From contig OZ024740.1 in assembly GCA_964016885.1 (NCBI GenBank), positions 412,238,001 through 412,302,000 of the forward strand: 64,000 bases of DNA. Reading direction: 5' to 3'. The notes below the pieces were generated by a model. It saw only the letters and a list, made by a program, of their open reading frames with translations, did no database searches and was not told the origin of the DNA. The position numbers were made by a program, and so were the translations under genes. The first letter of the stretch is position 1, and each line of letters opens with the position of its first letter. Shown piece after piece: positions 1 to 62,696 of this stretch. This DNA is from Eledone cirrhosa (Eukaryota).

Positions 1-3000
1 TGTTGGTGGTGATACTGGTGGCAGTGTTAGTGATGGTGATGCTGATGATGATGGTTATATTGTTGGTGGTGATACTGGTGGCAGTGTTAGTGATGGTGAT
101 GGTGTTGATGATGTTTATGTTGTTGGTGGTGATACTGGTGGCAGTGCTAGTGATGCTGATGCTTATGAAGAGGTTTATGTTGTTGGTGGTGATACTGGTG
201 GCAGTGTTAGTGATGGTGATGGTGTTGATGATGTTTATGTTGTTGGTGGTGATACTGGTGGCAGTGCTAGTGATGGTGATGCTTATGAAGAGGTTTATGT
301 TGTTGGTGGTGATACTGGTGGCAGTGTTAGTGATGGGGATGCTGTTGATGATGTTTAATTTGTTGGTGGAGATACTGGTGGCAGTGATGGTGATGGTGAT
401 GCTGTTGATGATGTTTATGTTGTTGGTGGTGATACTGGTGGCAGTGCTAATGATGGTGATGTTGCTGATGATGTTTATGTTGTTGGTGGTGATACTGGTG
501 GCAGTGCTAGTGATGGTGATGGTGTTGATGATGTTTATGTTGTTGGTGGTGATACTGGTGGCAGTGTTATTGATGTTGATGATGTTGATGATATTTATGT
601 TGTTGGTGGTGATACTGGTGGCAGTGTTACTGATGGTGATGCTGTTGATGATATTTATGTTGTTGCTGGTGATACTGGTGGGAGTGTTAGTGATGGTGAT
701 GCTGTTGATGTTTATGTTGTTGGTGGTGATACTGGTGGCTGTGTTAGTGATGCTGATGCTGATGATGATGTTTATGTTGCTGGTGGTGATACTGGTGGCA
801 GTGTTAGTGATGGTGATGCTGATGATGTTTATGTTGTTGGTGGTGATACTGGTGGCAGTGATAGTGATGGTGATGCTGTTGATGATGTTTATGTTGTTGG
901 TGGTGATACTGGTGGCAGTGTTAGTGATGGTGATGATGTTGATGATGTTTATGTTGGTGGTGGTGATACTGGTGGCAGTGTTAGTGATGGTGATGCTGAT
1001 GATGATGTTTATGTTGTTGGTGGTGATACTGGTGGCAGTGTTATTGATGGTGATGCTGTTGATGATGTTTATGTTGTTGGTGGTGATACTGGTGGCAGTG
1101 ATGGTGATGCTGATGATATTTATGTTATTGGTGGTGATACTGGTGGCAGTGCTAGTGATGGTGATGGTGATGAAGTTTATGTTGTTGGTGGTGATACTGG
1201 TGGCAGTGTTAGTGTTTGTGATGGTGTTGATGAAGTTTATGTTGTTGGTGGTGATACTGGTGGCAGTGTTAGTGTTTGTGATGGTGTTGATGAAGTTTAT
1301 GTTGTTGGTGGTGATTCTGGTGGCAGTGTTAGTGATGGTGATGCTGATGATGATGTTTATGTTGTTGGTGGTGATACTGGTGGCAGTGTTATTGATGGTG
1401 ATGCTGATGATGTTTATGTTGTTGGTGGTGATACTGGTGGCAGTGATGGTGATGCTGATGATATTTATGTTATTGGTGGTGATACTGGTGGCAGTGCTAG
1501 TGATGGTGATGGTGATGAAGTTTATGTTGTTGGTGGTGATACTGGTGGCAGTGTTAGTGTTTGTGATGGTGTTGATGAAGTTTATGTTGTTGGTGGTGAT
1601 ACTGGTGGCAGTGTTAGTGTTTGTGATGGTGTTGATGAAGTTTATGTTGTTGGTGGTGATACTGGTGGCAGTGTTAGTGTTTGTGATGGTATTGATGAAG
1701 TTTATGTTGTTGGTGGTGATACTGGTGGCAGTGTTAGTGTTTGTGATGGTGTTGATGAAGTTTATGTTGTTGGTAGTGATACTGCTGGCAGTGTTAATGT
1801 TTGTGATGGTGTTCATGAAGTTTATGTTGTTGGTGGTGATACTGGTGGCAGTGTTAGTGTTTGTGATGGTGTTGATGAAGTTTATGTTGTTGGTGTTATA
1901 CTAGTGGCAGTGTTAGTGTTTGTGATGGCGTTGATGAAGTTTATGTTGTTGGTGGTGATACTGGTGGCAGTGTTAGTGATAGTGATGGTGATGATGTTTA
2001 TGTTGTTGGTGGTGATACTGGTGGCAGTGATGGTGATGCTGATGATATTTATGTTGTTGGTGGTGATACTGGTGGCAGTGCTAGTGATGGTGATGGTGAT
2101 GAAGTTTATGTTGTTGGTGGTGATACTGGTGGCAGTGTTAGTGTTTGTGATGGTGTTGATGAAGTTTATGTTGTTGGTGGTGATACTGGTGGCAGTGTTA
2201 GTGTTTGTGATGGTGTTGATGAAGTTTATGTTGTTGGTGGTGATACTGGTGGCAGTGCTAGTGATGGTGATGGTGATGAAGTTTATTTTGTTGGTGGTGA
2301 TACTGGTGGCAGTGTTAGTGTTTGTGATGGTGTCGAAGAAGTTTATGTTGTTGGTGGTGATACTGGTGGCAGTGTTATTGTTTGTGATGGTGTTGATGAA
2401 GTTTATGTTGTTGGTGGTGATACTGGTGGCAGTGTTAGTGATGGTGATGCTGATGATGAAGTTTATGTTGTTGGCGGTGATACTGGTGGCAGTGCTAGAT
2501 GATGAAGCTGATGATGATAATTATGTTGTTGGTGGTGATACTGGTGGCAGTGTTAGTGATGGTGATGGTGATGGTGATGATGATGTTTATGTTGTTGGTG
2601 GTGATACTGGTGGCAGTGCTAGTGATGGTGATGGTGATGATGTTTATGTTGTTGGTGGTGATACTGGTGGCAGTGTTAGTGATGGTGATGGTGATAATGA
2701 TGTTTATGTTGTTGGTGGTGATACTGGTGGCAGTGTTAGTGATGGTGATTGTGATGATGTTTATGTTGTTGGTGGTGATACTGGTGGCAATGTTAGTGAT
2801 GGTGATGGTGATGATGATGTTTATGTTGTTGGTGGTGATACTGGTGGCAGTGTTAGTGATGGTGATGGTGATGATATTTATGTTGTTGGTGGTGATACTG
2901 GTGGCAGTGTTAGTGATGTTGATGGTGATGATGATGTTTATGATGTTGGTGGTGATACTGGTGGCAGTGTTAGTGATGGTGATGGTGATGATGTTTATGT

Positions 3001-6000
3001 TGTTGGTGGTTATACTGGTGGCCGTGTTAGTGATGGTGATGCTGATGATGATGTTTATGTTGTTGGTGGTGATACTGGTGGCAGTGTTAATGATGGTGAT
3101 GCTGATGATGATGTTTATGTTGTTGGTGGTGAAACTGGTGGTAGTGTTAGTGATGGTGATGCTGATGATGTTTATGTTGTTGGTGGTGATGCTGGTGGCA
3201 GTGCTAGTGATGGTGGTGCTGATGGTGTTGTTTATGTTGTTGATGGTGATACTGGTGGCAGTGTTAGTGATGGTGATGCTGATGATGATGTTTATGTTGT
3301 TGGTGGTGATACTGGTGGCAGTGCTAGATGATGATGCTGATGATGATAATTATGTTGTTTGTGGTGATACTAGTGGCAGTGTTAGGGATGGTGATGCTGA
3401 TGATGATGTTTATGTTGTTGGTGGTGATACTGGTAGCAGTTTTAATGATGGTGATGCTGTTCATGATGTTTATGTTGTTGGTGGTGATACTGGTGGCCGT
3501 GTTAGTGATGGTGATGCTGATGATGTTTATGTTGTTGGTGGTGATACTGGTGGCAGTGTTATTGATGGTGATGCTGATGATGATGTTTATGTTGTTGGTG
3601 GTGATACTGGTGGCAGTGCTAGTGATGGTGGTGCTGTTGATGGTGATGAAGTTTATGTTGTTGGTGGTGATACTGGTGGCAGTGTTAGTGATGGTGATGC
3701 TGTTGATGATATTTATGTTGTTGGTGGTGATACTGGTGGCAGTGTTAGTGATGGTGATGCTGATTATGTTTATGTTGTTGGTGGTGATACTGGTGGAGGT
3801 GCTAGTAATGGTGATGATGTTGATGATGTTTATGTTGTTGGTGGTGATACTGGTGGCAGTGTTAGTGATGGTGATGCTGATGATGATGTTTATGTTGTCG
3901 GTGGTGATACTGGTGGCAGTGTTATTGATGGTGATGCTGTTGATGATGTTTATGTTGTTGGTGCTGATACTGGTGGCAGTGTTAGTGATGGTGATGCTGA
4001 TGATGTTTATGTTGTTGGTGGTGATACTGGTGGCAGTGCTAGTGATGGTGATGCTGATGATGTTTATGTTGTTGGTGGTGATACTGGTGGCAGTGCTAGT
4101 GATGGTGATGCTGTTGATGATATTTATGTTGTTGGTGGTGGTACTGGTGGCAGTGTTAGTGATGGTGATGCTGATGATGCTATTTATGTTGTTGGTGGTG
4201 AAACTGGTGGCAGTGTTAGTGATGGTGATGCTAATGATGTTTATGTTGCTGGTGGTGATACTGGTGGCAGTGTTAGTGATGGTGATGCTGATGATGTTTA
4301 TATTGTTGGTGGTGATACTGGTGGCAGTGTTAGTGATGGTGATGGTGTTGATGATGTTTATGTTGTTGGTGGTGATACTGATGGCAGTGCTAGTGATACT
4401 GATGCTTATGATGTTTATGTTGTTGGTGGTGATACTGGTGGCAGTGATGGTGATGCTGATGATATTTATGTTATTGGTGGTGATACTGGTGGCAGTGCTA
4501 GTGATGGTGATGGTGATGAAGTTTATGTTGTTGGTGGTGATACTGGTGGCAGTGTTAGTGTTTGTGATGGTGTTGATGAAGTTTATGTTGTTGGTGGTGA
4601 TACTGGTGGCAGTGTTAGTGTTTGTGATGGTGTTGATGAAGTTTATGTTGTTGGTGGTGATACTGGTGGCAGTGTTAGTGTTTGTGATGGTGTTGATGAA
4701 GTTTATGTTGTTGGTGGTGATACTGGTGGCAGTGTTAGTGTTTGTGATGGTGTTGATGAAGTTTATGTTGTTGGTGGTGATACTGCTGGCAGTGTTAATG
4801 TTTGTGATGGTGTTCATGAAGTTTATGTTGTTGGTGGTGATACTGGTGGCAGGGTTAGTGTTTGTGATGGTGTTGGTGAAGTTTATGTTGTTGGTGGTGA
4901 TACTGGTGGCAGTGTTAGTGTTTGTGATGGTGTTGTTGAAGTTTATGTTGTTGGTGGTGATACTGGTGGCAGTGTTAGTGATAGTGATGGTGATGATGTT
5001 TATGTTGTTGGTGGTGATACTGGTGGCAGTGATGGTGATGCTGATGATATTTATGTTGTTGGTGGTGATACTGGTGGCAGTGCTAGTGATGGTGATGGTG
5101 ATGAAGTTTATGTTGTTGGTGGTGATACTGGTGGCAGTGTTAGTGTTTGTGATGGTGTTGATGAAGTTAATGTTGTTGGTGGTGATACTGGTGGCAGTAT
5201 TAGTGTTTGTGATGGTGTTGATGAAGTTTATGTTGTTGGTGGTGATACTGGTGGCAGTGTTAGTGTTTGTGATGGTGTTGATGAAGTTTATGTTGTTGGT
5301 GGTGATACTGGTGGCAGTGTTAGTGTTTGTGATGGTGTTGATGAAGTTTATGTTGTTGGTGGTGATACTGGTGGCAGTGCTAGTGATGGTGATGGTGATG
5401 AAGTTTATTTTGTTGGTGGTGATACTGGTGGCAGTGTTAGTGTTTGTGATGGTGTTGAAGAAGTTTATGTTGTTGGTGGTGATACCGGTGGCAGTGTTAT
5501 TGTTTGTGATGGTGTTGATGAAGTTTATGTTGTTGGTGGTGATACTGGTGGCAGTGTTAGTGATGGTGATGCTGATGATGAAGTTTATGTTGTTGGCGGT
5601 GATACTGGTGGCAGTGCTAGATGATGATGCTGATGATGATAATTATGTTGTTGGTGGTGATACTGGTGGCAGTGTTAGTGATGGTGATGGTGATGGTGAT
5701 GATGATGTTTATGTTGTTGGTGGTGATACTGGTGGCAGTGCTAGTGATGGTGATGGTGATGATGTTTATGTTGTTGGTGGTGATACTGGTGGCAGTGTTA
5801 GTGATGGTGATGGTGATGATGATGTTTATGTTGTTGGTGGTGATACTGGTGGCAGTGTTAGTGATGGTGATTGTGATGATGTTTATGTTGTTGGTGTTGA
5901 TACTGGTGGCAATGTTAGTGATGGTGATGGTGATGATGATGTTTATGTTGTTGGTGGTGATACTGGTGGCAGTGTTAGTGATGGTGATGGTGATGATATT

Positions 6001-9000
6001 TATGTTGTTGGTGGTGATACTGGTGGCAGTGTTAGTGATGTTGATGGTGATGATGATGTTTATGATGTTGGTGGTGATACTGGTGGCAGTGTTAGTGATG
6101 GTGATGGTGATGATGTTTATGTTGTTGGTGGTTATACTGGTGGCAGTGTTAGTGATGGTGATGCTGATGATGATGTTTATGTTGTTGGTGGTGATACTGG
6201 TGGCAGTGTTAATGATGGTGATGCTGATGATGATGTTTATGTTGTTGGTGGTGAAAATGGTGGTAGTGTTAGTGATGGTGATGCTGATGATGTTTATGTT
6301 GTTGGTGGTGATGCTGGTGGCAGTGCTAGTGATGGTGGTGCTGATGGTGATGTTTATGTTGTTGATGGTGATACTGGTGGCAGTGTTAGTGATGGTGATG
6401 CTGATGATGATGTTTATGTTGTTGGTGGTGATACTGGTGGCAGTGCTAGATGATGATGCTGATGATGATAATTATGTTGTTGGTGGTGATACTAGTGGCA
6501 GTGTTAGGGATGGTGATGCTGATGATGATGTTTATGTTGTTGGTGGTGATACTGGTAGCAGTGTTAATGATGGTGATGCTGTTCATGATGTTTATGTTGT
6601 TGGTGGTGATACTGGTGGCCGTGTTAGTGATGGTGATGCTGATGATGTTTATGTTGTTGGTGGTGATACTGGTGGCAGTGTTATTGATGGTGATGCTGAT
6701 GATGATGTTTATGTTGTTGGTGGTGATACTGGTGGCAGTGTTATTGATGGTGATGGTGATGCTGATGATGATGTTTATGTTGTTGGTGGTGATACTGGTG
6801 GCAGTGTTAGTGATGGTGATGGTGATTGTGATGATGATGTTTATGTTGTTGGTGGTGATACTGGCGGCAGTGTTAGTGATGGTGATGCTGATGATATTTA
6901 TGTTGTTGGTGGTGATACTGGTGGCAGTGCTAGTGATGGTGATGGCGTTGATGATGTTTATGTTGTTGGTGGTGATACTGGTGGCAGTGCTAGTGATGGT
7001 GATGGTGTTGATGATGTTTATGTTGTTGGTGGTGATTCTTGTGGCATTGTTAGTGATGGTGATGTTGTTGATGTTTATGTTGTTGGTGGTGATACTGGTG
7101 GCATTGTTAGTGATGGTGATGATGATGTTTATGTTGTTGGGAGTGATACTGGTGGCATTGTTAGTGCTGGTGATGCTGATGATGATGTTATGTTGTTGGT
7201 GGTGATACTGGTGGCAGTGTTAGTGCTGGTGATGCTGATGATGATGTTTATGTTGTTGGTGGTGATACTGGTGGCAGTGTTAGTGATGGTGATGTCGTTG
7301 ATGATGTTTATGTTGTTGGTGGTAATACTGGGGGCAGTGTTAGTGATGGTGATGGTGTTGATGATGTTTATGTTGTTGGTGGTTATACTGGTGGCAGTGC
7401 TAATGATGGTGATGTTGTTGATGATGTTTATGTTGTTGGTGGTGATACTGGCGGCAGTGCTATTGATGGTGATGGTGTTGATGATGTTTATGTTGTTGGT
7501 GGTGATACTGGTGGCAGTGTTAGTGATGGTGATGATGTTGATGGTGTTTATGTTGTTGGTGGTGATACTGGTGGCAGTGTTAGTGATGGTGATGCTGTTG
7601 ATGAAGTTTATATTGTTGGTGGTGATACTGGTGGCAGTGTTAGTGATTGTGATGGTGTTGATGATGTTTATGTTGTTGGTGGTGATACTGGTGGCAGTGT
7701 TAGTGATGGTGATGCTGTTGATGAAGTTTATATTGTTGGTGGTGATACTGGTGGCAGTGTTAGTGATGGTCATGCTGTTGATGATGTTTAATTTGTTGGT
7801 GGTGATACTGGTGGCAGTGTTAGTGATGGGGATGGTGTTGATGATGTTTATGTTGTTGGTGGTGATACTGGTGGCAGTGCTAGTGATGGTGGTGCTGTTG
7901 ATGGTGATGAAGTTTATGTTGTTGGTGGTGATACTGGTGGCAGTGTTACTGATGGTGATGCTGTTGATGATATTTATGTTGTTGGTGGTGATACTGGTGG
8001 CAGTGCTAGTGATGGTGGTGCTGTTGATGGTGATGAAGTTTATGTTGTTGGTGGTGATACTGGTGGCAGTGTTACTGATGGTGATGATGTTGATGATGTT
8101 TATGTTGTTGGTGGTGATACTGGTGGCAGTGTTAGTGATGGTGATGATGTTGATGGTGTTTATGTTGTTGGTGGTGATACTGGTGGCAGTGTTAGTGATG
8201 GTGATGATGTTGATGATATTTATGTTGTTGGTGGTGATACTGGTGGCAGTGTTATTGATGGTGGTGCTGTTGATGGTGATGAAGTTTATGTTGTTGGTGG
8301 TGATACTGGTGGCAGTGTTAGTGATTTTGATGCTGATGATGATGTTTATGTTGTTGGTGGTGATACTGGTGGCAGTGTTATTGATGGTGATGATGTTGAT
8401 GATGTTTATGTTGTTGGTGCTGATACTGGTGGCAGTGTTAATGATGGTGATACTGATGATGTTTATGTTGTTGGTGGTGATACTGGTGGCAGTGCTAGTG
8501 ATGGTGATGCTGATGATGTTTATGTTGTTGGTGGTGATACTGGTGGCAGTGCTAGTGATGGTGATGCTGTTGATGATATTTATGTTGTTGGTGGTGATAC
8601 TGGTGGCAGTGTTAGTGATGGTGATGCTGATGATGCTATTTATGTTGTTGGTGGTGAAACTGGTGGCAGTGTTAGTGATGGTGATGCTGATGATGATGTT
8701 TATGTTGCTGGAGGTGATACTGGTGGCAGTGTTAGTGATGGTGATGCTGATGATGTTTATGTTGTTGGTGGTGATACTGGTGGCAGTGCTAGTGATGGTG
8801 ATGCTGTTGATGATGTTTATGTTGTTGGTGGTGATACTGGTGGCAGTGTTAGTGATGGTGATGCTGTTGATGATATTTATGTTGTTGGTGGTGATACTGG
8901 TGGCAGTGTTATTGATGGTGATGTTGATGATGTTTATGTTGTTGGTGGTGCTACTGGTGGCAGTGTTAGTGATGGTGATGCTGATGATGATGTTTATGTT

Positions 9001-12000
9001 GTTGGTGGTGATACTGGTGGCAGTGTTATTGATGGTGATGCTGATGATGATGTTTATGTTGTTGGTGGTGATACTGGTGGCAGTGTTAGGGATGGTGATG
9101 CTGTTGGTGATGTTTATGTTGTTGGTGGTGATACTGGTGGCAGTGTTATTGATGGTGATGCTGATGATGATGTTTATGTTGTTGGTGGTGATACTGGTGG
9201 CAGTGTTATTGATGGTGATGCTGATGATGATGTTTATGTTGTTGGTGGTGGTACTGGTGGCAGTGTTAGTGATGGTGATGCTGTTGATGTTTATGTTGTT
9301 GGTCGTGATACTGGTGGCAGTGCTAGTGATGGTGATGCTGTTGATGATGTTTATGTTGTTGGTGGTGATACTGGTGGCAGTGTTAGTAATGGTGATGCTG
9401 ATGATGATGTTTATTTTGTTGGTGGTGATACTGGTGGCAGTGTTAGTGATGGTGATGGTGATGATGTTTATGTTGTTGGTGGTGATACTGGTGGCAGTGT
9501 TAGTGATAGCGATGCTGTTGATGATGTTTATGTTGTTGGTGGTGATACTGGTGGCAGTGCTAGTGATGATGATGCTGTTGATATTTATGTTGTGGGTGGT
9601 GATACTGGTGGCAGTGTTAGTGATGGTGATGCTGTTGATGATGTTTATGTTGTTGGTGGTGATACTGGTGGCAGTGTTAGTGATGGTGATGCTGATGATG
9701 ATGTTTATGTTGTTGGTGGTGATACTGGTGGCAGTGTTAGTGATGGTGATGCTGATGATGATGTTTATGTTGTTGATGGTCATACTGGTGCCAGTGCTAG
9801 TGATGGTGATGATGATGTTTATGTTGTTGGTGGTGATACTGGCGGCAGTGTTAGTGATGGTGATGCTATTGATGATGTTTATGTTGTTGGCGGTGATACT
9901 GGTGGCAATATTAGTGATGGTGATGGTGATGAAGTTTATGTTGTTGGTGGTGATACTGGTGGCAGTGTTAGTGTTTGTGATGGTGTTGATGAAGTTTATG
10001 TTGTTGGTGGTGATACTGGTGGCAGTGTTAGTGATTGTGATGGTGTTGATGAAGTTTATGTTGTTGGTGGTGATACTGGTGGCAGTGTTAGTGTTTGTGA
10101 TGGTGTTGATGAAGTTTATGTTGTTGGTGGTGATACTGGTGGCAGTGTTAGTGTTTGTGATGGTGTTGATGAAGTTTATGTTGTTGGTGGTGATACTGGT
10201 GGCAGTGTTAGTGTTTGTGATGGTGTTGATGAAGTTTATGTTGTTGGTGGTGATACTGGTGGCAGTGTTAGTGTTTGTGATGGTGTTGATGAAGTTTATG
10301 TTGTTGGTGGTGATACTGGTGTCAGTGCTAGTGATGGTGATGGTGATGAAGTTTATGTTGTTGGTGGTGATACTGGTGGCAGTGTTAGTGATAGTGATGG
10401 TGATGATGTTTATGTTGTTGGTGGTGATACTGGTGGCAGTGATGGTGATGCTGATGATATTTATGTTGTTGGTGGTGATACTGGTGGCAGTGCTAGTGAT
10501 GGTGATGGTGATGACGTTTATGTTGTTGGTGGTGATACTGGTGGCAGTGTTAGTGATGGTGATGGTGATGATATTTATGTTGTTGGTGGTGATACTGGTG
10601 GCAGTGTTAGTGATAGTGATTGTGATGATGATGTTTATGTTGTTGGTGGTGATACTGGTGGCAATGTTAGTGATGGTGATGGTGATGGTGATGTTTATGT
10701 TGTTGGTGGTGATACTGGTGGCAGTGCTAGATGATGATGGTGATGATGATGTTTATGTTGTTTGTGGTGATACTGGTGGCAGTGTTAGTGATGGTGGTGC
10801 TGTTGATGGTGATGAAGTTTATGTTGTTGGTGGTGATACTGGTGGCAGTGTTAGTGATGGTGATGCTGTTGATGATATTTATGTTGTTGGTGGTGATACT
10901 GGTGGCAGTGTTAGTGATGGTGATGCTGATTATGTTTATGTTGTTGGTGGTGATACTGGTGTCAGTGTTATTGATGGTGATGCTGATGATGATGTTTATG
11001 TTGTTGGTGGTGATACTGGTGGCAGTGTTAGGGATGGTGATGCTGTTGGTGATGTTTATGTTGTTGGTGGTGATACTGGTGGCAGTGTTATTGATGGTGA
11101 TGCTGATGATGATGTTTATGTTGTTGGTGGTGATACTGGTGGCAGTGTTATTGATGGTGATGCTGATGATGATGTTTATGTTGTTGGTGGTGGTACTGGT
11201 GGCAGTGTTAGTGATGGTGATGCTGTTGATGTTTATGTTGTTGGTGGTGATACTGGTGGCAGTGCTAGTGATGATGATGCTGTTGATATTTATGTTGTGG
11301 GTGGTGATACTGGTGGCAGTGTTAGTGATGGTGATGCTGTTGATGATGTTTATGTTGTTGGTGGTGATACTGGTGGCAGTGTTAGTGATGGTGATGCTGA
11401 TGATGATGTTTATGTTGTTGGTGGTGATACTGGTGGCAGTGTTAGTGTTGGTGATGCTGTTGATGATGTTTATGTTGTTGATGGTGATACTGGTGCCAGT
11501 GCTAGTGATGGTGATGATGATGTTTATGTTGTTGGTGGTGATACTGGCGGCAGTGTTAGTGATGGTGATGCTATTGATGATGTTTATGTTGTTGGCGGTG
11601 ATACTGGTGGCAGTGCTAGTGATGGTGATGCTGCAGATGATATTTATGTTGTTGGTGGTGATACTGGTGGCAATATTAGTGATGGTGATGGTGATGATGT
11701 TTATGTTGTTGGTGGTGATACTGGTGGCAGTGATGGTGATGCTGATGATATTTATGTTATTGGTGGTGATACTGGTGGCAGTGCTAGTGATGGTGATGGT
11801 GATGAAGTTTATGTTGTTGGTGGTGATACTGGTGGCAGTGTTAGTGTTTGTGATGGTGTTGATGAAGTTTATGTTGTTGGTGGTGATACTGGTGGCAGTG
11901 TTAGTGTTTGTGATGGTGTTGATGAAGTTTATGTTGTTGGTGGTGATACTGGTGGCAGTGTTAGTGATTGTGATGGTGTTGATGAAGTTTATGTTGTTGG

Positions 12001-13148
12001 TGGTGATACTGGTGGCAGTGTTAGTGTTTGTGATGGTGTTGATGAAGTTTATGTTGTTGGTGGTGATACTGGTGGCAGTGTTAGTGTTTGTGATGGTGTT
12101 GATGAAGTTTATGTTGTTGGTGGTGATACTGGTGGCAGTGTTAGTGTTTGTGATGGTGTTGATGAAGTTTATGTTGTTGGTGGTGATACTGGTGGCAGTG
12201 TTAGTGTTTGTGATGGTGTTGATGAAGTTTATGTTGTTGGTGGTGATACTGGTGTCAGTGCTAGTGATGGTGATGGTGATGAAGTTTATGTTGTTGGTGG
12301 TTATACTGGTGGCAGTGTTAGTGTTTGTGATGGTGTTGATGAAGTTTATGTTGTTGTTGGTGATACTGGTGGCAGTGTTAGTGTTTGTGATGGTGTTGAT
12401 GAAGTTTATGTTGTTGGTGGTGATACTGGTGGCAGTGTTAGTGATAGTGATGGTGATGATGTTTATGTTGTTGGTGGTGATACTGGTGGCAGTGATGGTG
12501 ATGCTGATGATTTTTATGTTGTTGGTGGTGATACTGGTGGCAGTGCTAGTGATGGTGATGGTGATGAAGTTTATGTTGTTGGTGGTGATACTGGTGGCAG
12601 TGTTAGTGATGGTGATGGTGATGATGTTTATGTTGTTGGTGGTGATACTGGTGGCAGTGTTAGTGATAGTGATGGTGATGATGATGTTTATGTTGTTGGT
12701 GGTGATACTGGTGGCAATGTTAGTGATGGTGATGGTGATGATGATGTTTATGTTGTTGGTGGTGATACTGGTGGCAGTGCTAGCTGATGATGGTGATGAT
12801 GATGTTTATGTTGTTGGTGGTGATACTGGTGGCAGTGTTAGTGATGGTGATGGTGATGATGTTTATGTTGTTGGTGGTTATACTGGTGGCAGTGTTAGTG
12901 ATGGTGATGGTGATGAAGTTTATGTTGTTGGTGGTGATACTGGTGGCAGTGCTAGATGATGATGCTGATGATGATAATTATGTTGTTGGTGGTGATACTG
13001 GTGGCAGTGTTAGTGATGGTGATGCTGATGATGATGCTTATGTTGTTGGTGGTGATACTGGTGGCAGTGTTAGTGATGGTGATGCTGATGATGATATTTA
13101 TGTTGTTGGTGGTGATACTGGTGGCAGTGTTAGTGATGCTGATGATGT
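1..13148. repeat. G/T-rich minisatellite array, 57-60 bp unit (consensus ~ tttatgttgttggtggtgatactggtggcagtgttagtgatggtgatgctgatgatgatg); runs off the window start
   Basis: About 220 tandem units, with the + strand very C-poor. Sporadic 1-2 nt indels (e.g. ~1900, ~2497, ~3326, ~7188, ~10730) switch frames, so the MLLVVILVAV / VYVVGGDTGG / TNTATSITTN ORFs are repeat artefacts. Confidence 0.95.
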
Positions 13149-16187: not shown

Positions 16188-16230
16188 AAATTACCGGTTT
16201 CGATGTATTAAAATCCATCTTGTCAAATTC
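16188..16230 (-). ncRNA. Minimal type I hammerhead, U3:A8 core variant
   Basis: Minus strand: gaat-TTGACAA-gatg-gattttaata-catc-GAAA-ccgg-TA-attt. Stem III is the palindrome ACCGGT. Confidence 0.75.
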
Positions 16231-17526: not shown

Positions 17527-19786
17527 TTAAATATTTAGTTTTGGTTTAAATTTATTAATAAATATTTTTTCCTTATTTATTCTTTGTTGTTGAGTGAAAG
17601 AATCGGAGCTCTTGTAAACGGGGAAGATTTTAAAGTTGGGGAGAGTCATTCCTGTACAATCTGCAATGTGGCTGCTTAAGGCTATTTTCCTTGTGATTGC
17701 GTCTCGGATTTGTTGGCGATGGATGGTCATTATTTTGCGTAATGATACACCCATCTGCCCTATATAGTTATGTTGACAACCACCACATGTGATTACATAG
17801 ATTAGGTTCTCCGAGTTGCAAGTGAAGTTGTATTTCACTGTGAAAGTTTGGCCATCTTTGAACGTGAAATTTTGCCCTTCAATTAAGTGTAGGCATGTCC
17901 CACAGTTCGTTCTTCCGCATTTTGTTACCATAAGGTTGGAGATAGGTTTGTGTATCTTTGTTTGTGTGAGGATGTGTTTTAGTGATTTTGGTTGCCTTTT
18001 GCTTTTGATGATCTTGTGTGTTTCTAGAATCTTTTTCATTTTTCATCTTTAAATAGAATGGGGAGGTTTTTGTGTAAGAGGACGATATTTTGGTGTTTCT
18101 GGGTTTGAACGTGAATACATATGGTAAGGTATTGTTTGTGGTGTCGTGTTTTGGGTTGTTGGGTTGATGAACAATTGCGTATTTTGCTTTCTCTATACCG
18201 TTATTAATTATGTTAAGTGGGAAGGCTCTTAAGGTGAGTGTGTTTTTGAGTTCCTTTAGTCTTTGTTCCGGTTTAGCTAGGTCTGATACTATAGTGCATA
18301 TACGTTTGGCTAAATTGAGAGGGATGTTAAGTTTTGTATGTTTTGGGTGATTTGATGTGAATAGGAGGTACTGTTTGGAGTCCGTGTGTAATAGATGTCT
18401 GTCTCTATTTTTCCATCTGTTTTTAGAATGAGAATATCCAGGAAGGCTAATTCCTTGGAGTTCGATTCCATTGTGAATTGTATATTATTGTTAATGTTGT
18501 TAATCATATTCTTGAAAAGGGTGAGTGTGTTTGTGTTTTCCTGCCAAAGAATGAAGCAATCGTCGAGGTATCTCTTCCAGTTGTTTTTGAGATGTGTAAG
18601 GAAAAAGTCTCCGAATAATAGAAGGGTTTGGTTGTAGAGTTGTTGTTCGTTGAAACCCATGACTAAGTTGGCGGATGTGGAGGCTACCTTTGTGCCCATT
18701 GCAGTTCCTGAGATTTGTCGGTATGTTGAGTCCTTGAAAGTAAAGAAATTATTCTGTAAGATAAATTGGAGTCCATCAATAATGAAGTTTTTGTTGATGC
18801 GTGTTGGTATTTCAGATTGTTGAGTGTCTAGCCAAAACTGGATTGCTGCTATTCCATGGTTATGGGTATGTTAATGTAGAGATTTATTACGTCAAAGGAG
18901 ACTAGAATAGTGCTTTCACTTACTGTTTTGGGTAGGTGGTTCAGCATATCCAGGTCATCTCGTATGTAGCTTTGTATATGTTTTAGAAAGGGCTTCAGTA
19001 GGATGTCCAGGAAGTTGCTAATTCTGTGGGTTTCACATGCAGGGCCTGCTATAATTGGGCTCAGTGGTCTGAGTCTTCTAGTAGTGTTAATTGTATGTAT
19101 TTATTAGTTGAGGTGTCCCATGCATTGCTTATGCGTTTACATTTATGTATCTTCGGTAAGCCGTAAAAGGCACTTGTATTACATTTGAAATGGCTTATGT
19201 ATTCAAATTCCTTTGTGGTTAGGCTACTGCGGTATTTGTGCAGTAATGGTAGGAGGTTCCCCATAGTTTTTGTTTGTTTGTAGTTTGCTGTTTTTTCGTA
19301 GTATCTGTTGTCAACTAAGATTTTGAGTGCCAGGTCTCTATAGTAATCAATGTCCATAATGACTACAGTGCTCCATTTATCATCTTCTTTGATGGTTATT
19401 TCAGTGTGGTTTCGCAGTGTGAATAATTCTTTCCATTCGTGTTTGGAGAGGTTCGATTTCATGTGTTTATTTATGATTTGTTCATAGAGACAGTTGATGG
19501 TGCGTTCGCAGTAGATGTCCAGTGCTGTGTTCCTCCCTTTCTGTGGGCAGAAATCACTTTTGTTTCTGATTATTGATTCGTCTTCATTATTGCTGTCATT
19601 AGAGAAGTATTCTATTAATCTGAGTTTTAGGCAGAATTCCATGATGTCATCTTTCATTTCGGGGAAGTTAGATTTTTGTGGTGTGGGTGTAGATTTCAGT
19701 CCCTTACTTAATATATTAATTTGTGTGTTGGTTAGTGATACTTTTGAAAGGGTAATTATCTTCGGCTTCTCATGAGTGGGAGCCAA
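17527..19786 (-). pseudogene. PLE reverse transcriptase + GIY-YIG ORF with frameshifts
   Basis: ORF pieces 19061..19786, 18310..18699 and 17527..18039 are colinear parts of one RT-thumb-Zn linker-EN protein. Confidence 0.9.
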
Positions 19787-22019
19787 CGGGTGTCCTGGTA
19801 TTTCAGTCCTGTTCCTAAAAAAGGAATGTTGTGTTGGTCGTAATTGTAGCCTGCTTATCTGTTTTGTATGGGTCTGTAGTTAGTTTTTAAATAAGAGTTA
19901 ATGTGGTGATGGGGGTGGTATCTGTTGTAGTTGTTATTGTGTAAGGGTTCTGTTGCGGGTTCATGTGGTCTGGGTGGGTTCCTTCTAGGATGCAAATAAA
20001 TATCCATTAAATTCCAATGAGTTTGTTACAGCCATCTACCTATCTACATATATATCTATTTACGGACAGTTATTTTCATTTGGGCTTCGCTTATTTAGTG
20101 TTAATTGATCTTGTACAGAGATAGATATATTGGTAAATACATAACTATAGATGGTGTGTGAGTGAGACAGCTGTGTAAGCAAATAAATGATGGAGAAGAG
20201 AACGTAAAGCAGAGTAGAAAATAGTTAAGAGTATCAGATGTAAGGTAAGAAGATTGAGCTGAATTGAACTTAAAGATAGCTATAACATGAGATAAAACTT
20301 GTTTAGGGATAGTGTAGATTTCACATTTTACTTTTCGTTTAGGTAATGAATTTGGGAAGATATAGTGTGTGTAACCGATGTAGAAATTGAAAGTTACGAT
20401 AAGATAGGATTATTTGGGGAAATAATGAAATGCGGTGTGGTAAATAAATTCAAAATTAGAATAACATAAACGTTGCAATGGACTACGAGACGTCTTGCTG
20501 CATAATTAGTGGTTAGTTGCTAGTAGCGAGAATTGATGGTGATATAAAGATAAGAAACAGAAATAATAAAAGTAATGGTCAGGAAATTATTAGATGAATG
20601 AAGGAAATACGTAAGGAAAGAATGAATAAACAAACATTAGTTATAAACGAATGATTTGTAAATGGAAATTTTGGAATGAAAACGAATTCTGACATATGAC
20701 AACTGTAAGGACGAAACAAATAAATAGCAATCGAAGCAAAATATGTTAAATTCGTTGTTATCGTTGTTGTTTTAGATGCTGCTTTGACTGTTTAGATGAC
20801 AGCGCATGACTTAGACGTTAGAGTTTCAGTCTCACGATCATAAATACCTGAGGTGCCTCGGAGCACACTGCTCGTTGTCTTAGAGCAAGACATGTTAGTT
20901 GCCACTGCACCAGTTTATTCAGCTGCAAAACAGTGTTGCAACGAGGCTGGTACCAAGCTGCATGGAGATGCAATCACTGGTTTATGCATAATGGTTGTAA
21001 ACGATATGACCAGCCACTACTGGCTGAGGACATTTCCATTTCTTTAACGTTTTAGCCCTAAATAAGCGTTAATTTTAGAAACAAGTGATAAAAGTTATTC
21101 CCGCACTAATAATCAATATAGTAATTATTATCCAAAGTGTTTTCTTTTTAGAAGAAGACGGCGTATGGATATGAAGATGTTCTATGATGCAGCCGGATCG
21201 GGAAATGTTGAGTTATAATTATGGTAGTGAAACTGAAAATTCCTCTCACTATTGTGAGGAATACAATGGCAGAGTGTATTTGTCTAATACTTAATCTCAT
21301 TATGTCATCATTTACCGGATTATATTCAAAGGATAAATTTGTCTATAATTTTACCGAATATGCAAAACCACCGTTTTTGATATTAGTCAAATATTAAAAT
21401 GATAGATGATAAATAAATAAAAATACAAATGTGATTACTATTTGAGAGATGAGCGACAAAAGATAGGTTTGATAATTGATGATGATATATCAAGAGAAAT
21501 TGTCTGATTAAAATGTTACATAATTCCATGTTTCGGCCTCAATCCCGCCTCGCAATGTCTTCTTTAGCTACAGGTTGACTACTGCATTGTAGTGGGACAT
21601 TTCGTAGATGGAAACTGCAGACGTTCGACCTACATATTGATACACACACACACACACATCTGTGTTTTTGTGTCAGTGTATATGAGTGTGTTTTATTGCC
21701 ATTGTTTATATCTAGCGACATAGTAGCTCTACAAAAACTGTTCGATAAGATAAGTATCAGATAAGATAAAAGTAACATGTCTGCTGCCAAGCGACTGTCT
21801 CAAATAATTAAAGAAATAAATCAAATGAAACAAAATTAAACGAGAAATGGATTGAACCTTAATATTGTAAAGATGTGAAACGAAAAGGAACGACAGAAAA
21901 GCATACAGAAGTAGCGAATATGTTGTTGTTGTGACAGCTCACACCTAATCAGGTTTAGCTGACCTCCTCCAAGGTATATCTAGTTGGAGGTGTCTTGGGT
22001 GATTTAATGATAGGGATCC

Positions 22020-25455: not shown

Positions 25456-25503
25456 AACATTTGAAAAGATGGCTTTTGCAGACCCATCGAAACCGGTCAT
25501 TTT
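25456..25503 (+). ncRNA. Minimal type I hammerhead, U3:A8 core variant, in a solo pLTR-like fragment (~25130-25620)
   Basis: aacat-TTGAAAA-gatgg-cttttgcagac-ccatc-GAAA-ccgg-TC-atttt. Stem I is weak (one mismatch). Confidence 0.65.
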
Positions 25504-30880: not shown

Positions 30881-30955
<75 letters not shown>

Positions 30956-31024
30956 TATGAAGAGAGAAGAAACATTTAGATATAATTAGTAATAAAATGT
31001 ATCATACCTAAACTGTTCCTAAAT

Positions 31025-31112
31025 TCCTCGACTACGTAGTTTCGTGGCATAAACAAAAACAATATATCAAAGATATAGAGTCCTTGCGAGGTCTGCCGAC
31101 TTATCAAGAGGA
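31025..31112 (-). ncRNA. Type I hammerhead, U3:A8 variant with expanded stem II (unit 1)
   Basis: Minus strand: tcctc-TTGATAA-gt(c)ggca...tgccac-GAAA-ctacgtag-TC-gagga. Stem III is the palindrome ACTACGTAGT. Confidence 0.8.
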
Positions 31113-31615
31113 TACCTCATTTTACTAGTCTCAAGAACGCGTCTATACGACGTGAGAAAGAATCCCAAAAGGCGGAGGGGGAGATAGTCATGCGATATAA
31201 CGGTCGAGAAACAGAGCTAAGCCTCTTATAACCACGAAGAAAATACCACGGAGGCGGAGGGGGTATTCATATCGAGGCCGCAGAAGAGGTAGTGAAGAAG
31301 GCGAGAAGTATGAGTAATGGAAGCTTTCCAGTTGTCCCCACACTTCAAAGATTGCTCGACCAGAGGGAGTTATTAATATATTTAGAAACACACAGATACA
31401 TGCGGACACACACATATATACATGAGTGCATCCGCACCCAACTGTGAGTTAAGGGTGCCAACTTCACCGATGTTGCTCAATGAATGACTGGGACAGACCA
31501 ATTCAGTTTGAACTAGACTGAACCAGTATCAGAGTTAAAAATACATTATGAAGAGAGAAGAAACATTTAGATATAATTAGTAATAAAATGTATCATACCT
31601 AAACTGTTCCTAAAT

Positions 31616-31703
31616 TCCTCGACTACGTAGTTTCGTGGCATAAACAAAAACAATATATCAAAGATATAGAGTCCTTGCGAGGTCTGCCGACTTATCAAGA
31701 GGA
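31616..31703 (-). ncRNA. Type I hammerhead, U3:A8 variant (unit 2)
   Basis: Same sequence as 31025-31112. Confidence 0.8.
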
Positions 31704-32206
31704 TACCTCATTTTACTAGTCTCAAGAACGCGTCTATACGACGTGAGAAAGAATCCCAAAAGGCGGAGGGGGAGATAGTCATGCGATATAACGGTCGAGA
31801 AACAGAGCTAAGCCTCTTATAACCACGAAGAAAATACCACGGAGGCGGAGGGGGTATTCATATCGAGGCCGCAGAAGAGGTAGTGAAGAAGGCGAGAAGT
31901 ATGAGTAATGGAAGCTTTCCAGTTGTCCCCACACTTCAAAGATTGCTCGACCAGAGGGAGTTATTAATATATTTAGAAACACACAGATACATGCGGACAC
32001 ACACATATATACATGAGTGCATCCGCACCCAACTGTGAGTTAAGGGTGCCAACTTCACCGATGTTGCTCAATGAATGACTGGGACAGACCAATTCAGTTT
32101 GAACTAGACTGAACCAGTATCAGAGTTAAAAATACATTATGAAGAGAGAAGAAACATTTAGATATAATTAGTAATAAAATGTATCATACCTAAACTGTTC
32201 CTAAAT

Positions 32207-32294
32207 TCCTCGACTACGTAGTTTCGTGGCATAAACAAAAACAATATATCAAAGATATAGAGTCCTTGCGAGGTCTGCCGACTTATCAAGAGGA
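32207..32294 (-). ncRNA. Type I hammerhead, U3:A8 variant (unit 3)
   Basis: Same sequence as 31025-31112. Confidence 0.8.
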
Positions 32295-32657
32295 TACCTC
32301 ATTTTACTAGTCTCAAGAACGCGTCTATACGACGTGAGAAAGAATCCCAAAAGGCGGAGGGGGAGATAGTCATGCGATATAACGGTCGAGAAACAGAGCT
32401 AAGCCTCTTATAACCACGAAGAAAATACCACGGAGGCGGAGGGGGTATTCATATCGAGGCCGCAGAAGAGGTAGTGAAGAAGGCGAGAAGTATGAGTAAT
32501 GGAAGCTTTCCAGTTGTCCCCACACTTCAAAGATTGCTCGACCAGAGGGAGTTATTAATATATTTAGAAACACACAGATACATGCGGACACACACATATA
32601 TACATGAGTGCATCCGCACCCAACTGTGAGTTAAGGGTGCCAACTTCACCGATGTTG

Positions 32658-32720
<63 letters not shown>

Positions 32721-33698
32721 GTGTGTATATATATATATATAAATGAAATAAAATAACAGGAGACTGGACTGGTGTAAATCCTTGAAATGATTATTATACT
32801 ATGATCATTTCAATGACCGCGTTCCATATGAATCCGGTGATATCATCAGGTATTGGAATATAACAAAGGAATATGTAAAAATCAGAGACAGAGACAGAGA
32901 GGACGTCTGACCAACTAGCTTCTCGGCCAGTCGCCCTCAAAGTGTTGGCAACTGAAGCTACTAATGAATATCTGGTGAGGGGTCGAATGCGTATAATGCA
33001 CCACCACCACTCCGTCAAAGAAGAAGGGGAAGAAAGAAAGAGAGGGAGAAAGAAGTGTAGTTTAAGGGTCATACTACATTCATGCTAGAAAATGCCGCGA
33101 AAAAATGCTACCGCAAAGAATCTATAATGGGTGTCTGTATGGTCTAATGTGTGAACCGAAGATTGGAACGTTAAACTTATGTTGCGAGTTATAGGATGAA
33201 TTTAAATTAAATGATAAATATTAAATTGCAAAATGATAAATTGAAAAATAAGTTATTAGACAATTAAAGATTAAGTTAGCGAGATTTATTTATTTAATGA
33301 AGTTACGGAGAGTGTCTTATATGAAAAATGTTATCTCGATAAGATATTAGGATGGGATATAGAGTAAAGATTTCTATTGGAGTCCCCCCCCCCCCAAAAA
33401 AAAAAACAAGGCCTTGTCAGCTTCATCTCCCCCTGTTTGCTGAAATTAAAGTAAGTGAGTCTGTCACTACTCTAAAACAATAGCATAAGGTCTTCGAAAT
33501 GCTTTTAATTAAGCATACAGTGTATTGCAAAATACACTATATATACATTCATATATATATATAGCTATTTCAGAGCACAAATTCTAATTTTCAATTTCTG
33601 CTAGACCGGCAACCGCTCTGTATAATCAGTTCCTGATTATTTACTAGAATTCTATAAGAACCAAACATCCATGATTTCAGCAAACAGGAGGAGTAGTT

Positions 33699-33743
33699 GG
33701 CGTTGATAAGCATGAATAAATGCGAAACATGGCCTTGTCAGCT
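33699..33743 (+). ncRNA. Type I hammerhead, U3:A8 variant (320-bp array, copy 1)
   Basis: ggcg-TTGATAA-gcat-gaataa-atgc-GAAA-catggccttg-TC-agct. There is a mismatch at the base of stem I. Confidence 0.7.
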
Positions 33744-34017
33744 TTATCTCCCCCTGTTTGCTGAAATTAAAGTAAGTGAGTCTGTCACTACTCTAAAACA
33801 ATAGCATAAGGTCTTCGAAATGCTTTTAATTAAGCATACATTGTATTGCAAAATACACTATATATACATTCATATATATATAGCTATTTCAGAGCGCAAA
33901 TTCTAATTTTCAATTTCTGCTTGACCGGCAACCGCTCTGTATAATCAGTTCCTGATTATTTACTAGAATTCTATAAGAACCAAACATCCATGATTTCAGC
34001 AAACAGGAAGTGTAGTT

Positions 34018-34062
34018 GGCTTTGATAAGCATCAATAAATGCGAAACAAGGCTTTGTCAGCT
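34018..34062 (+). ncRNA. Type I hammerhead, U3:A8 variant (copy 2)
   Basis: ggct-TTGATAA-gcat-caataa-atgc-GAAA-caa-ggct-ttg-TC-agct. Confidence 0.85.
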
Positions 34063-34336
34063 TTATCCCCTCCTGTTTGCTGAAATTAAAGTAAGTGAGT
34101 TTGTCACTACTCTAAAACAATAGCATAAGGTATTCGAAATGCTTTAATTAAGCATACAGTGTATTGTAAAAAGACACTATATATACATTCATATATATAT
34201 AGCTATTTCAGAGCACAAATTCTAATTTTCAATTTCTGCTTGACCGGCAACCGCTCTGTATAATCAGTTCCTGATTATTTACTAGAATTCTATAAGAACC
34301 AAACATCCATGATATCAGCAAACAGGAGGAGTAGTT

Positions 34337-34381
34337 GGCTTTGATAAGCATCAATAAATGTGAAACAAGGCCTTGTCAGCT
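34337..34381 (+). ncRNA. Type I hammerhead, U3:A8 variant (copy 3)
   Basis: ggct-TTGATAA-gcat-caataa-atgt-GAAA-caaggccttg-TC-agct. Stem III is the palindrome ACAAGGCCTTGT. Confidence 0.8.
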
Positions 34382-34538
34382 TTATCTCCCCCTGTTTGCT
34401 GAAATTAAAGAAAGTGAGTCTGTCACTACTCTAAAACAATAGCATAAGGTCTTCGAAATGCTTTTAATTAAGCATACAGTGTATTGCAAAATACACTATA
34501 TATACAAACATATATATATAGCTATTTCAGAGCACAAA

Positions 34539-34624
<86 letters not shown>

Positions 34625-34689
34625 TGTGGTGGAACACTGGAGGGAAATATCAGTAGTGGTAGAGCACTCAGTCCAAGGGACTAGTTAGG

Positions 34690-34941
<252 letters not shown>

Positions 34942-61369: not shown

Positions 61370-61501
<132 letters not shown>

Positions 61502-61572
61502 AAGAAAAAGAGATGAAATCGAAAATGCAACTGGAGTCTTATCTTTTAAAAAATATATATATTTATTTGGTT

Positions 61573-61610
61573 CCTTTACCGGTTTCGCAGTTCTTCTGCT
61601 TTTCAAAAGG
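61573..61610 (-). ncRNA. Minimal type I hammerhead, U3:A8 variant (left arm)
   Basis: Minus strand: cctt-TTGAAAA-gcag-aagaa-ctgc-GAAA-ccgg-TA-aagg. Confidence 0.85.
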
Positions 61611-62505
61611 TGAGTTGAGATGGAGGGTCTGTGGTTTTTCTCACATCTGGTTGGTCTCTGAATGTTACTTGTTTTATATGGAAAAAGAAGCTCGAAATGC
61701 CAGGTTTTTCGAGAAGTAATTTGATTGGTTTGTCAATAATTATAATAAATTTCGCGCCAGTTCGCGTTACAATAGTTCTTCAAATAAGAGGGGGGGGTTG
61801 TCACATGTTGTTTTTTCATATATGAGTGTTTGAATTTCTTTTTACTTGAAAAAAGGGGCTCACGAAGGCTTTTTTTTTCGTTGGTTATAAATGAAAGTAT
61901 GGCTGTCACGTGAACAAGTTTTCATTAACTTTTCGTGCCCTTATTTGGAAATCCATTCTGTAGCCTTTTTAGAGAATGTTATGATAAGTGAAAGATAATG
62001 GTCAAGAGAAAGGGATGGGAGAATTGTTCTGGTTCGGTGAATATGGTTAGTTCACCCCAGCGAACTAACCATATTCACCAAACCAGAACAATTCTACCAT
62101 CCCTTTCTCTTGACCATTATCTTTCACTTATCATAAAATTCTCTAAAAAGGCTACAGAATGGATTTCCAAATAAGGGCACGAAAAGTTAATGAAAACTTG
62201 TTCACGTGACAGCCATAATTTCATTTATAACCAAACAAAAAAAGCCTTCGTGAGCCCCTTTTTTCAAGTAAAAAGAAATTCAAACACTCATATATGAAAA
62301 AACAACCTGTGACAACCCCCCCCCCCTCTTATTTGAAGAACTATTATAACGCGAACTGGCGCGAGATTTATTATAATTATTGACAAACCAATCAAATTAC
62401 TTCTCGAAAAACCTGGCATTTCGAGCCACTTTTTCCATATAAAACAAGTAACATTCAGAGACCAACCAGATGTGAGAAAAACCACAGACCCTCCATCTCA
62501 ACTCA

Positions 62506-62543
62506 CCTTTTGAAAAGCAGAAGAACTGCGAAACCGGTAAAGG
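62506..62543 (+). ncRNA. Minimal type I hammerhead, U3:A8 variant (right arm)
   Basis: cctt-TTGAAAA-gcag-aagaa-ctgc-GAAA-ccgg-TA-aagg. Confidence 0.85.
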
Positions 62544-62696
62544 AACCAAATAAATATATATATTTTCTAAAATAATAAGACTCCAGTTGCATTTTCGATT
62601 TCATCTCTTTTTCTTTATACTTTCACTCGTGTAGGACACCGGTTATTTTTCATTTTGTAAAAAAAACCTCACTTTCTAATATATATATATATATAT

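Follow-up and report, generated by a model that had tools for sequence, protein, structure and literature searches.

A candidate non-LTR retrozyme family with Penelope-type insertion ends in the cephalopod Eledone cirrhosa

The window analysed here, a 64,000-nucleotide stretch of the Eledone cirrhosa genome (contig OZ024740.1, positions 412,238,001 to 412,302,000), contains a short tandem array of hammerhead-bearing units ending in a (TA)n tract, which raises the question of what kind of element the array represents and from what form of template such units were copied into the genome. An initial annotation, made from the letters of the window, had proposed a retrozyme with a non-canonical ribozyme core that a (TA)n-targeting Penelope-like element (PLE) had integrated, using a circular or multimeric template. 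This proposal is supported by genome-wide dispersal, covariation, ends of the PLE type and the lack of any attached PLE frame at the loci searched, and the family to which the array belongs, termed family A here, is probably a non-LTR retrozyme copied by Penelope enzymes via a single-monomer, likely circular, template primed at two sites.

Metazoan non-LTR retrozymes of coral, mussel and axolotl (PMC7229834; Li, Clavereau and Pollet 2026) are built of the same non-coding tandem units of 150-450 bp, likewise with one type I hammerhead per unit, a self-paired monomer and co-existing PLEs, and mobilisation by PLEs via circles has been proposed there as well. Family A, whose RNA and cleavage are predicted from DNA, differs by its U3-A8 core and cephalopod host, and the accessible text of those papers describes neither fixed 3' ends at two sites nor head-to-head twins nor a single haplotype for each insertion. 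In the accessible portions of prior papers, copying of circles by Penelope enzymes in animal retrozymes is proposed, not demonstrated, and how the tail and the inverted repeat of PLEs arise is likewise unsettled there. To this the families described below contribute sequence-level evidence, namely a near-strict rule of one tail and one tail-less end per insertion and clonal multi-turn arms. Alongside an intact candidate enzyme from the same genome, they supply a putative 310-320 nt template whose priming sites are mapped, which makes the mechanism accessible to the PLE assay already established in vitro. What gives the array its significance is the mechanistic footprint common to the family group rather than the decayed copy in the window. 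In the literature covered, which includes few subscription papers, neither a retrozyme from a cephalopod nor an analysis of haplotypes or twin ends was found; the supplement of PMC7229834 (model in Fig. S9), outside the text consulted, may bear on this.

The window array and its hammerhead motifs

TRF delimits a tandem array at 33404-34545 on the plus strand, with a period of 319, 3.6 copies and 95% matches, corresponding to 3.58 units of family A. GUC triplets end at C33418, C33739, C34058 and C34377, hence the spacing of 321/319/319 and the approximately 3.5 head-to-tail units that had been annotated hold, with units of 319-321 bp. With unit numbering starting at the base after the cut, the 5'-truncated array begins inside stem III with a partial hammerhead (33404..33418, the stem III half plus GUC), about 15 nt before a cut site as had been noted, and continues with monomer 1 (33419..33739, 321 nt from cut site to cut site), monomer 2 (33740..34058, 319 nt, the reference unit with position 1 at 33740), monomer 3 (34059..34377, 319 nt) and a terminal partial unit (34378..34520) that reaches position 143, the tail-less end site of the family. 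A further 25 nt (34521..34545) form the 'tail' between the two family end sites, and the copy thus stops mid-unit at position 168, the 'tail' site, by the (TA)41 target tract (34544-34624) lying directly 3' of the array, again in line with the annotation. Unit junctions are seamless, with 0 bases gained or lost, GC content of the monomer is about one third, LTRs are absent and the longest stop-free frame spans 48 codons, so that the units are indeed non-coding.

A motif scan identified three complete type I hammerhead motifs on the plus strand with the core UUGAUAA at 33703, 34022 and 34341, each composed of a 4-bp stem I, UUGAUAA, stem II GCAU/AUGC, GAAA and a palindromic stem III. All elements that define a type I hammerhead (N3-U-G-A-N-N8-A, GAAA, UH, the 3-8 pair and three stems) are present in the predicted motifs, whose core departs from CUGAUGA by the double change at positions 3 and 8 (U3-A8). 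The first motif (33699..33743), with one mismatch in stem I and one in stem III, is probably impaired; the second (34018..34062) has a G-U in stem III and a predicted cut after C34058; the third (34337..34381) has a perfect stem III palindrome, a G-U at the stem II base and a predicted cut after C34377. The claim of one type I hammerhead per unit therefore stands for these three motifs but not for the first site at 33418, of which just the stem III half is present, and the claimed palindrome is perfect at sites 33418 and 34377 only, being broken by a mismatch at 33739 and a G-U at 34058. Since searches of the window units against Rfam returned no family at threshold, with only sub-threshold HH9 matches (18.7 bits, cut-off 52), the hammerhead call rests on motif and covariation.

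The U3-A8 core, correctly noticed as non-canonical, is common in this genome and had already been reported for Schistosoma PLE hammerheads (PMC4209133), this 2014 paper, in the parts consulted, being the single mention found of U3-A8 in relation to activity. The minimal PLE hammerheads in the accessible text of that paper share the type I topology, the U3-A8 variant, a palindromic stem III and a short stem I; they cleave as dimers, which for the window family is predicted, and differ from it with respect to the 12-nt stem III palindrome, the 4-bp stem II, the ORF-less unit and the switching between U3-A8 and C3-G8. The self-cleavage activity predicted for the window copy is doubtful, since just one out of nine predicted Xenopus retrozymes cleaved in vitro according to the accessible part of a 2026 preprint (10.64898/2026.07.22.740005). 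Additional hammerhead motifs, two of them with a U3-A8 core, lie near PLE remnants at 16226 (-), 30578 (+) and 46194 (-).

Judged by its sequence, the window copy is an older, partly decayed member of family A, about 2% decayed, since each complete ribozyme carries at least one weakening change and 4-10 positions per unit deviate from the family consensus. Its four units have 159C>A in common, an allele found in 8 of 79 loci, and their remaining substitutions are private, which fits a single template followed by independent decay.

Only the tail-primed arm of family A is present in the window. Across a C12-A8 junction (33384..33403), the 5' end of the array lies head-to-head with the tail-less 3' arm of another TA-ending PLE-type family (32742-33386, minus strand; 2,389 candidates), itself a truncated element, so that the locus looks like a mixed twin with one tail-less end and one tail end. 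However, this partner arm differs by 4.5% from its own consensus, as compared to about 2% for the array units, and may thus be an older neighbour. Such a mixed-family twin is the only case among 35 unpartnered arms of family A, whose 5' flanks revealed no recurrent partner family, and no sequencing reads bridging the array 5' junction were found. On the other side, a short inverted twin of another TA-associated family, also seen at L025, L039, L118, L136 and L146, adjoins the TA tract of the array at 34625-34829.

Monomer fold and covariation

The monomer folds with z = -4.8, with none of 100 shuffles equally good. Each of the eight helices named in the initial annotation consists of exactly complementary strands that are found in the units, apart from a single break each in the second and third of the three full units checked; the 15-bp closing helix of monomer 2 is formed by arms at 33753..33767 and 33993..34007 (plus strand). 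That almost the whole monomer can pair was overstated, as the circular minimum free energy (MFE) structure is branched and has 58-63% of its bases paired.

The covariation sought as a check on these helices is found in an alignment of 32 units, to which about five lineages contribute. Both sides change in 25 of 77 predicted pairs, including the C3-G8/U3-A8 exchange, and 91.6% of cells pair in comparison with 32-44% when partners are slid as a control, a shuffle test that ignores relatedness. By RNAalifold, 22 of 51 pairs covary. Covarying pairs are found in the closing helix (9/14), stem II (4/4) and stem I (3/4), and the 3-8 pair is U-A in 17 units and C-G in 14. In the sister family B, introduced below, two helices are misaligned and the ataatcag helix is lost or replaced.

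Stem III is informative with respect to how cleavage might proceed. Its inner pair (columns 147/150) covaries, though unable to close a hairpin, and the 12-mer has 0 kcal/mol alone and -19.5 kcal/mol as a duplex, which favours a model of double-hammerhead cleavage through the palindromic stem III; in family B this stem is a 6-nt palindrome. Dimer cleavage of minimal hammerheads is described in the accessible parts of PMC4209133 and PMC6765202. The active hammerhead fold is not the MFE in any window copy; instead, the MFE of family A contains an alternative 7-bp helix over the start of the core, of which 6-7 pairs are kept in 86 of 93 motifs, and this helix may conceivably hold a lone monomer inactive.

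Hammerhead viroids are about 300 nt long and self-paired, with a ribozyme predicted to be blocked in the monomer. Family A is therefore viroid-like as a structure and in no other sense, being genome-encoded, presumably spread by reverse transcription and represented, with its relatives, by thousands of genomic DNA copies. Given the features assessable from sequence, it qualifies as a non-LTR retrozyme and is neither a viroid nor an autonomous PLE, its unit lacking the ORF with RT and GIY-YIG that marks autonomous EN+ PLEs.

Dispersal, end sites and the candidate enzyme

The dispersal anticipated for these arrays is evident from 1,684 exact 23-mer matches to family A on many chromosomes, with 0 for the reversed control. 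In keeping with a cephalopod host, the 3.0-Gb genome carries molluscan haemocyanin genes with seven successive units, a number typical of octopods and Nautilus, and one unit scores highest, among single-stretch PDB matches, with the squid and octopus proteins 4yd9_C and 1js8_A. A sample of 79 non-redundant loci was assembled from the best full-monomer matches, an 81-nt query, 19 of the first exact matches and long-array stretches, with seven redundant or duplicated loci (L024, L030, L073, L074, L078, L079 and L112) excluded. Family B, a sister family of 310-312 bp with a canonical core and 17,530 exact matches, consists of near-identical units in arrays of up to about 37 units (L095-L110, L235-L242) and was, on this evidence, probably active recently, whereas family C is an older sister family of about 316 bp, also with a canonical core (2,400 candidates; L134-L163). 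Consensus identity to the subfamily of the window is 90-92% for A2 and A3, 76% for C and 60% for B, and the sister families switch between U3-A8 and C3-G8 cores. A few long arrays of family A (L111-L113 and L132), from 17 to over 25 units in length, have a higher-order organisation, and variants common to subsets of units in L111, L113 and L132 indicate that DNA-level, satellite-like amplification also occurs. One family A copy (L023:1881) abuts TTAGGG-type telomeric repeats with its 5' end.

The phase of the arrays had been expected to vary, which is not so at the 3' end, where it is fixed at two sites. Among 140 segments of family A, 57 end at positions 139-144 and another 57 at 166-175, together 114, and TA is found next to 48 and 56 of these ends, respectively, while the 5' ends are scattered. 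The two sites (~143 and ~168) are 25 nt apart, family C uses the same two, and a check for target-site duplication placed the ends in (TA)n. Family A forms 54 head-to-head inverted junctions, of which 36 have both outer ends intact and 18 with an interrupted end were left out of the end pairing. In 35 of the 36 intact twins one end of each kind is present, the remaining one having two long ends and none two short ends. In family B, leaving out L237/238 with one end in an assembly gap, all 18 intact twins combine one end at 140 with another at 164-171. Most twin junctions join unrelated unit positions with 0-7 nt of overlap, and some are palindromic or lie in closing-helix arms.

A one-sided tail, an inverted 5'-truncated partner and a microsatellite target are the hallmarks of PLE-mobilised insertions in the accessible text of PMC8557442 and PMC3846280, and all are found here; read from these sequences, the end pattern of the families is the Penelope 'tail' footprint. 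For one PLE it was shown in vitro that the tail is bounded by two internal RT start sites, which are used without strand preference, and that hammerhead cleavage is not needed for insertion (PMC11167929, accessible portion). Going by what is accessible of these three papers, EN+ PLEs resemble the present families in being 5'-truncated, in having an inverted partner that is itself truncated at the 5' end, in their microsatellite targets, and in a tail confined to one end, two internal RT start sites (predicted for the families) and a hammerhead 125-145 nt upstream of the first end. They differ in that the family is without an ORF, its tail measures 25-28 nt instead of 30-40, its arms are multiple turns of one small unit and its sequence does not match the tested PLE ends.

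Autonomous PLEs coexist in the genome, with intact 777-aa RT-EN frames at many loci. A young one, which provides the candidate enzyme, has overlapping 427-aa and 777-aa frames, an RVT_1 match and many intact copies (L224-L231), is also present in the window at 25461 (+) and 17527-19879 (-), and is putatively of the Neptune/Nematis type by its cysteine linker, judged by eye. It carries a U3-A8 hammerhead, targets (TA)n and leaves the same two-end footprint with a 37-nt tail. When units of families A, B and C were compared with the ends of two out of many PLE families (60 loci), no likeness to either was detectable, the matches listed being TA-rich stretches and one ordinary A copy only. A driver was also sought with a motif taken from run X7 (3.3-kb contig), which gave 0 genome matches, and a lead at L103/L114 was discarded as family C with no PLE frame. 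Searches with three PLE proteins at 95 loci revealed no contiguous PLE frame, so that these copies are not simply pLTRs attached to an RT-encoding PLE, the reading that would have told against a retrozyme. A PLE protein match lies nearby in 12 of the 95 loci: overlapping on the opposite strand at L034, 70 bp off on the opposite strand at L067, 206 bp off across an assembly gap at L110, and at least 246 bp off at the others. Elsewhere in the window, a 1.1-kb inverted twin with another PLE-type end (61498-62619) has a tail on one arm and U3-A8 hammerheads at 61606 (-) and 62510 (+).

Haplotypes, the template and rival explanations

The form of the template can be approached through variation among units. 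In family B, 13 haplotypes occur in 15 multi-unit loci (163 units), and all units of a locus, in both arms, carry the haplotype of that locus, with 11 unfixed variants that are all singletons. Unit pairs are identical in 592 of 650 comparisons within arms, 580 of 622 between arms and 243 of 12,258 between loci, with mean differences of 0.12, 0.08 and 4.5, respectively. Seven of the 15 loci were picked for carrying one variant and the unselected set gave the same outcome; one variant likewise forms unbroken runs at loci among its first 100 matches. In family A, with 10 loci set aside as long, duplicated or complex, the two arms agree in a common minor allele in 344 of 421 cases and units of the same arm in 110 of 169, as compared to 0.25 between loci, and rare-allele sharing is 8-17%. 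Thus, one haplotype per insertion is clear in B and weaker but present in A. Taken alone, one haplotype per locus fits one circle, sibling monomers or a homogeneous multimer alike. A one-monomer bottleneck is nevertheless needed at most cycles, since copying of linear multimers would leave new mutations in single units, and a circle is the simplest form of template, given the seamless unit junctions, which in family B are without added or lost bases in arrays of up to 35 units.

According to the proposed mechanism, the tandem array would be transcribed and, with stem III too weak alone, neighbouring hammerheads would cut as a double hammerhead via the palindrome to release 319-nt monomers, a lone monomer being kept inactive by the alternative 7-bp helix. 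A host ligase would then close the monomer into a circle, as RtcB of the host did in vitro with the monomers of axolotl and mussel (PMC7229834, text in part). The PLE protein with RT and GIY-YIG would cut both strands of (TA)n, upon which a single circle, or two sibling circles, would be primed internally by one 3'-OH at ~168 and by the second at ~143. Each RT would run for 0.3 to more than 10 turns, and short homology, frequently within the stem III palindrome or the arms of the closing helix, would serve to join the two cDNA ends. The circle-template route is a stated hypothesis in PMC4209133 and PMC7229834, while the 2026 preprint commits itself to no mechanism and points to local amplification (10.64898/2026.07.22.740005), as far as the accessible parts of these sources go.

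The alternatives concern the template and the second arm. The reverse transcriptase of a PLE might jump end to end between cleaved, linear sibling monomers of one precursor, which also predicts one haplotype per locus given a homogeneous parent array, and 5' truncations of family A are in fact enriched near the ribozyme and closing helix (26 at 1-20, 18 at 301-319 and 15 at 241-260, of 140). This enrichment is however inflated by the choice of loci with full monomers and by helix-arm annealing, the junctions in the window and in B arrays of up to 35 units are seamless, and retrozyme RNA of coral, mussel and axolotl is largely circular (PMC7229834, accessible text); we consider such jumping unlikely. 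A slightly smaller likelihood still attaches to a linear multimer transcribed from homogeneous master arrays and left uncleaved as the template, for which the ribozyme would be incidental to mobility. Unprocessed RNA is the main substrate for the Anolis PLE (PMC11167929, accessible text) and homogeneous parents yield homogeneous daughters, but diversity within loci should then approach that between loci, contrary to the 0.08-0.12 versus 4.5 differences observed, and locus-private variants are fixed in both arms. Moreover, the ribozyme helices are preserved by compensatory change, and fixed B variants hardly alter the folding energy (mean +0.02 versus +1.85 kcal/mol for singletons; p = 0.04, small sample).

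That a single priming event was followed by fold-back of the cDNA, as in the self-priming model proposed for rotifer PLEs (PMC3846280, in its accessible part), would account for identical haplotypes in both arms and for the junctions that are palindromic or lie in closing-helix arms. It predicts, on the other hand, a tail arm at least as long as the tail-less arm, yet the latter exceeds the tail arm in 19 of the 35 A twins and in 7 of the 18 B twins, and most junctions join unrelated positions. Since either arm can be the longer, two priming events are favoured, and a fold-back origin of the second arm is quite improbable and was rejected, as was a plain satellite. Least probable of all is that ordinary PLE pLTR stumps were amplified in place into minisatellites by unequal crossing-over, as proposed in the accessible part of the 2026 preprint (10.64898/2026.07.22.740005). 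The ends are PLE-like and a few long A arrays (L113, L111) have higher-order structure, so this may apply to the few long arrays. As a general explanation it is refuted by the absence of attached PLE frames at the 95 loci searched, by the closed structure of the unit, in which a helix borders the ribozyme, by opposed arms that are both multi-unit with one haplotype and by window units that carry only private mutations.

Copying of a single, probably circular monomer from two priming sites can be extended into a more specific model, which is plausible and held tentatively, with clearly less assurance than the core proposal. It would involve a dimeric Penelope enzyme carrying out two simultaneous rolling-circle copyings on one circle or on two siblings held by the palindrome, successive waves C, A and B, selection on the fold, and recurrent mutation or recombination at the RNA stage. 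The last is suggested by reticulate haplotypes in family B, all four allele combinations being found at 7 of 15 site pairs. With a view to possible RNA editing, A>G changes were counted; they account for 10 of 49 locus-shared and 44 of 404 private changes in family A and for 6 of 16 fixed variants in B, a pattern that tolerance of wobble pairs would equally predict. If this model is true, each insertion is a clone of one RNA molecule, and the genome preserves wave after wave (C, then A, then B) of an RNA of viroid size whose fold was under selection.

Two other repeats were observed in the window. A 591-bp tandem at 30945-32661 (2.9 copies, 99-100% identical, (TA)n-flanked), with no hammerhead by motif scan or Rfam and related pieces in L113 and L032, is possibly a ribozyme-less element or one with an unusual ribozyme. 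Positions 1-13144 are occupied by a 60-bp minisatellite of about 223 copies with a strong G/T skew.
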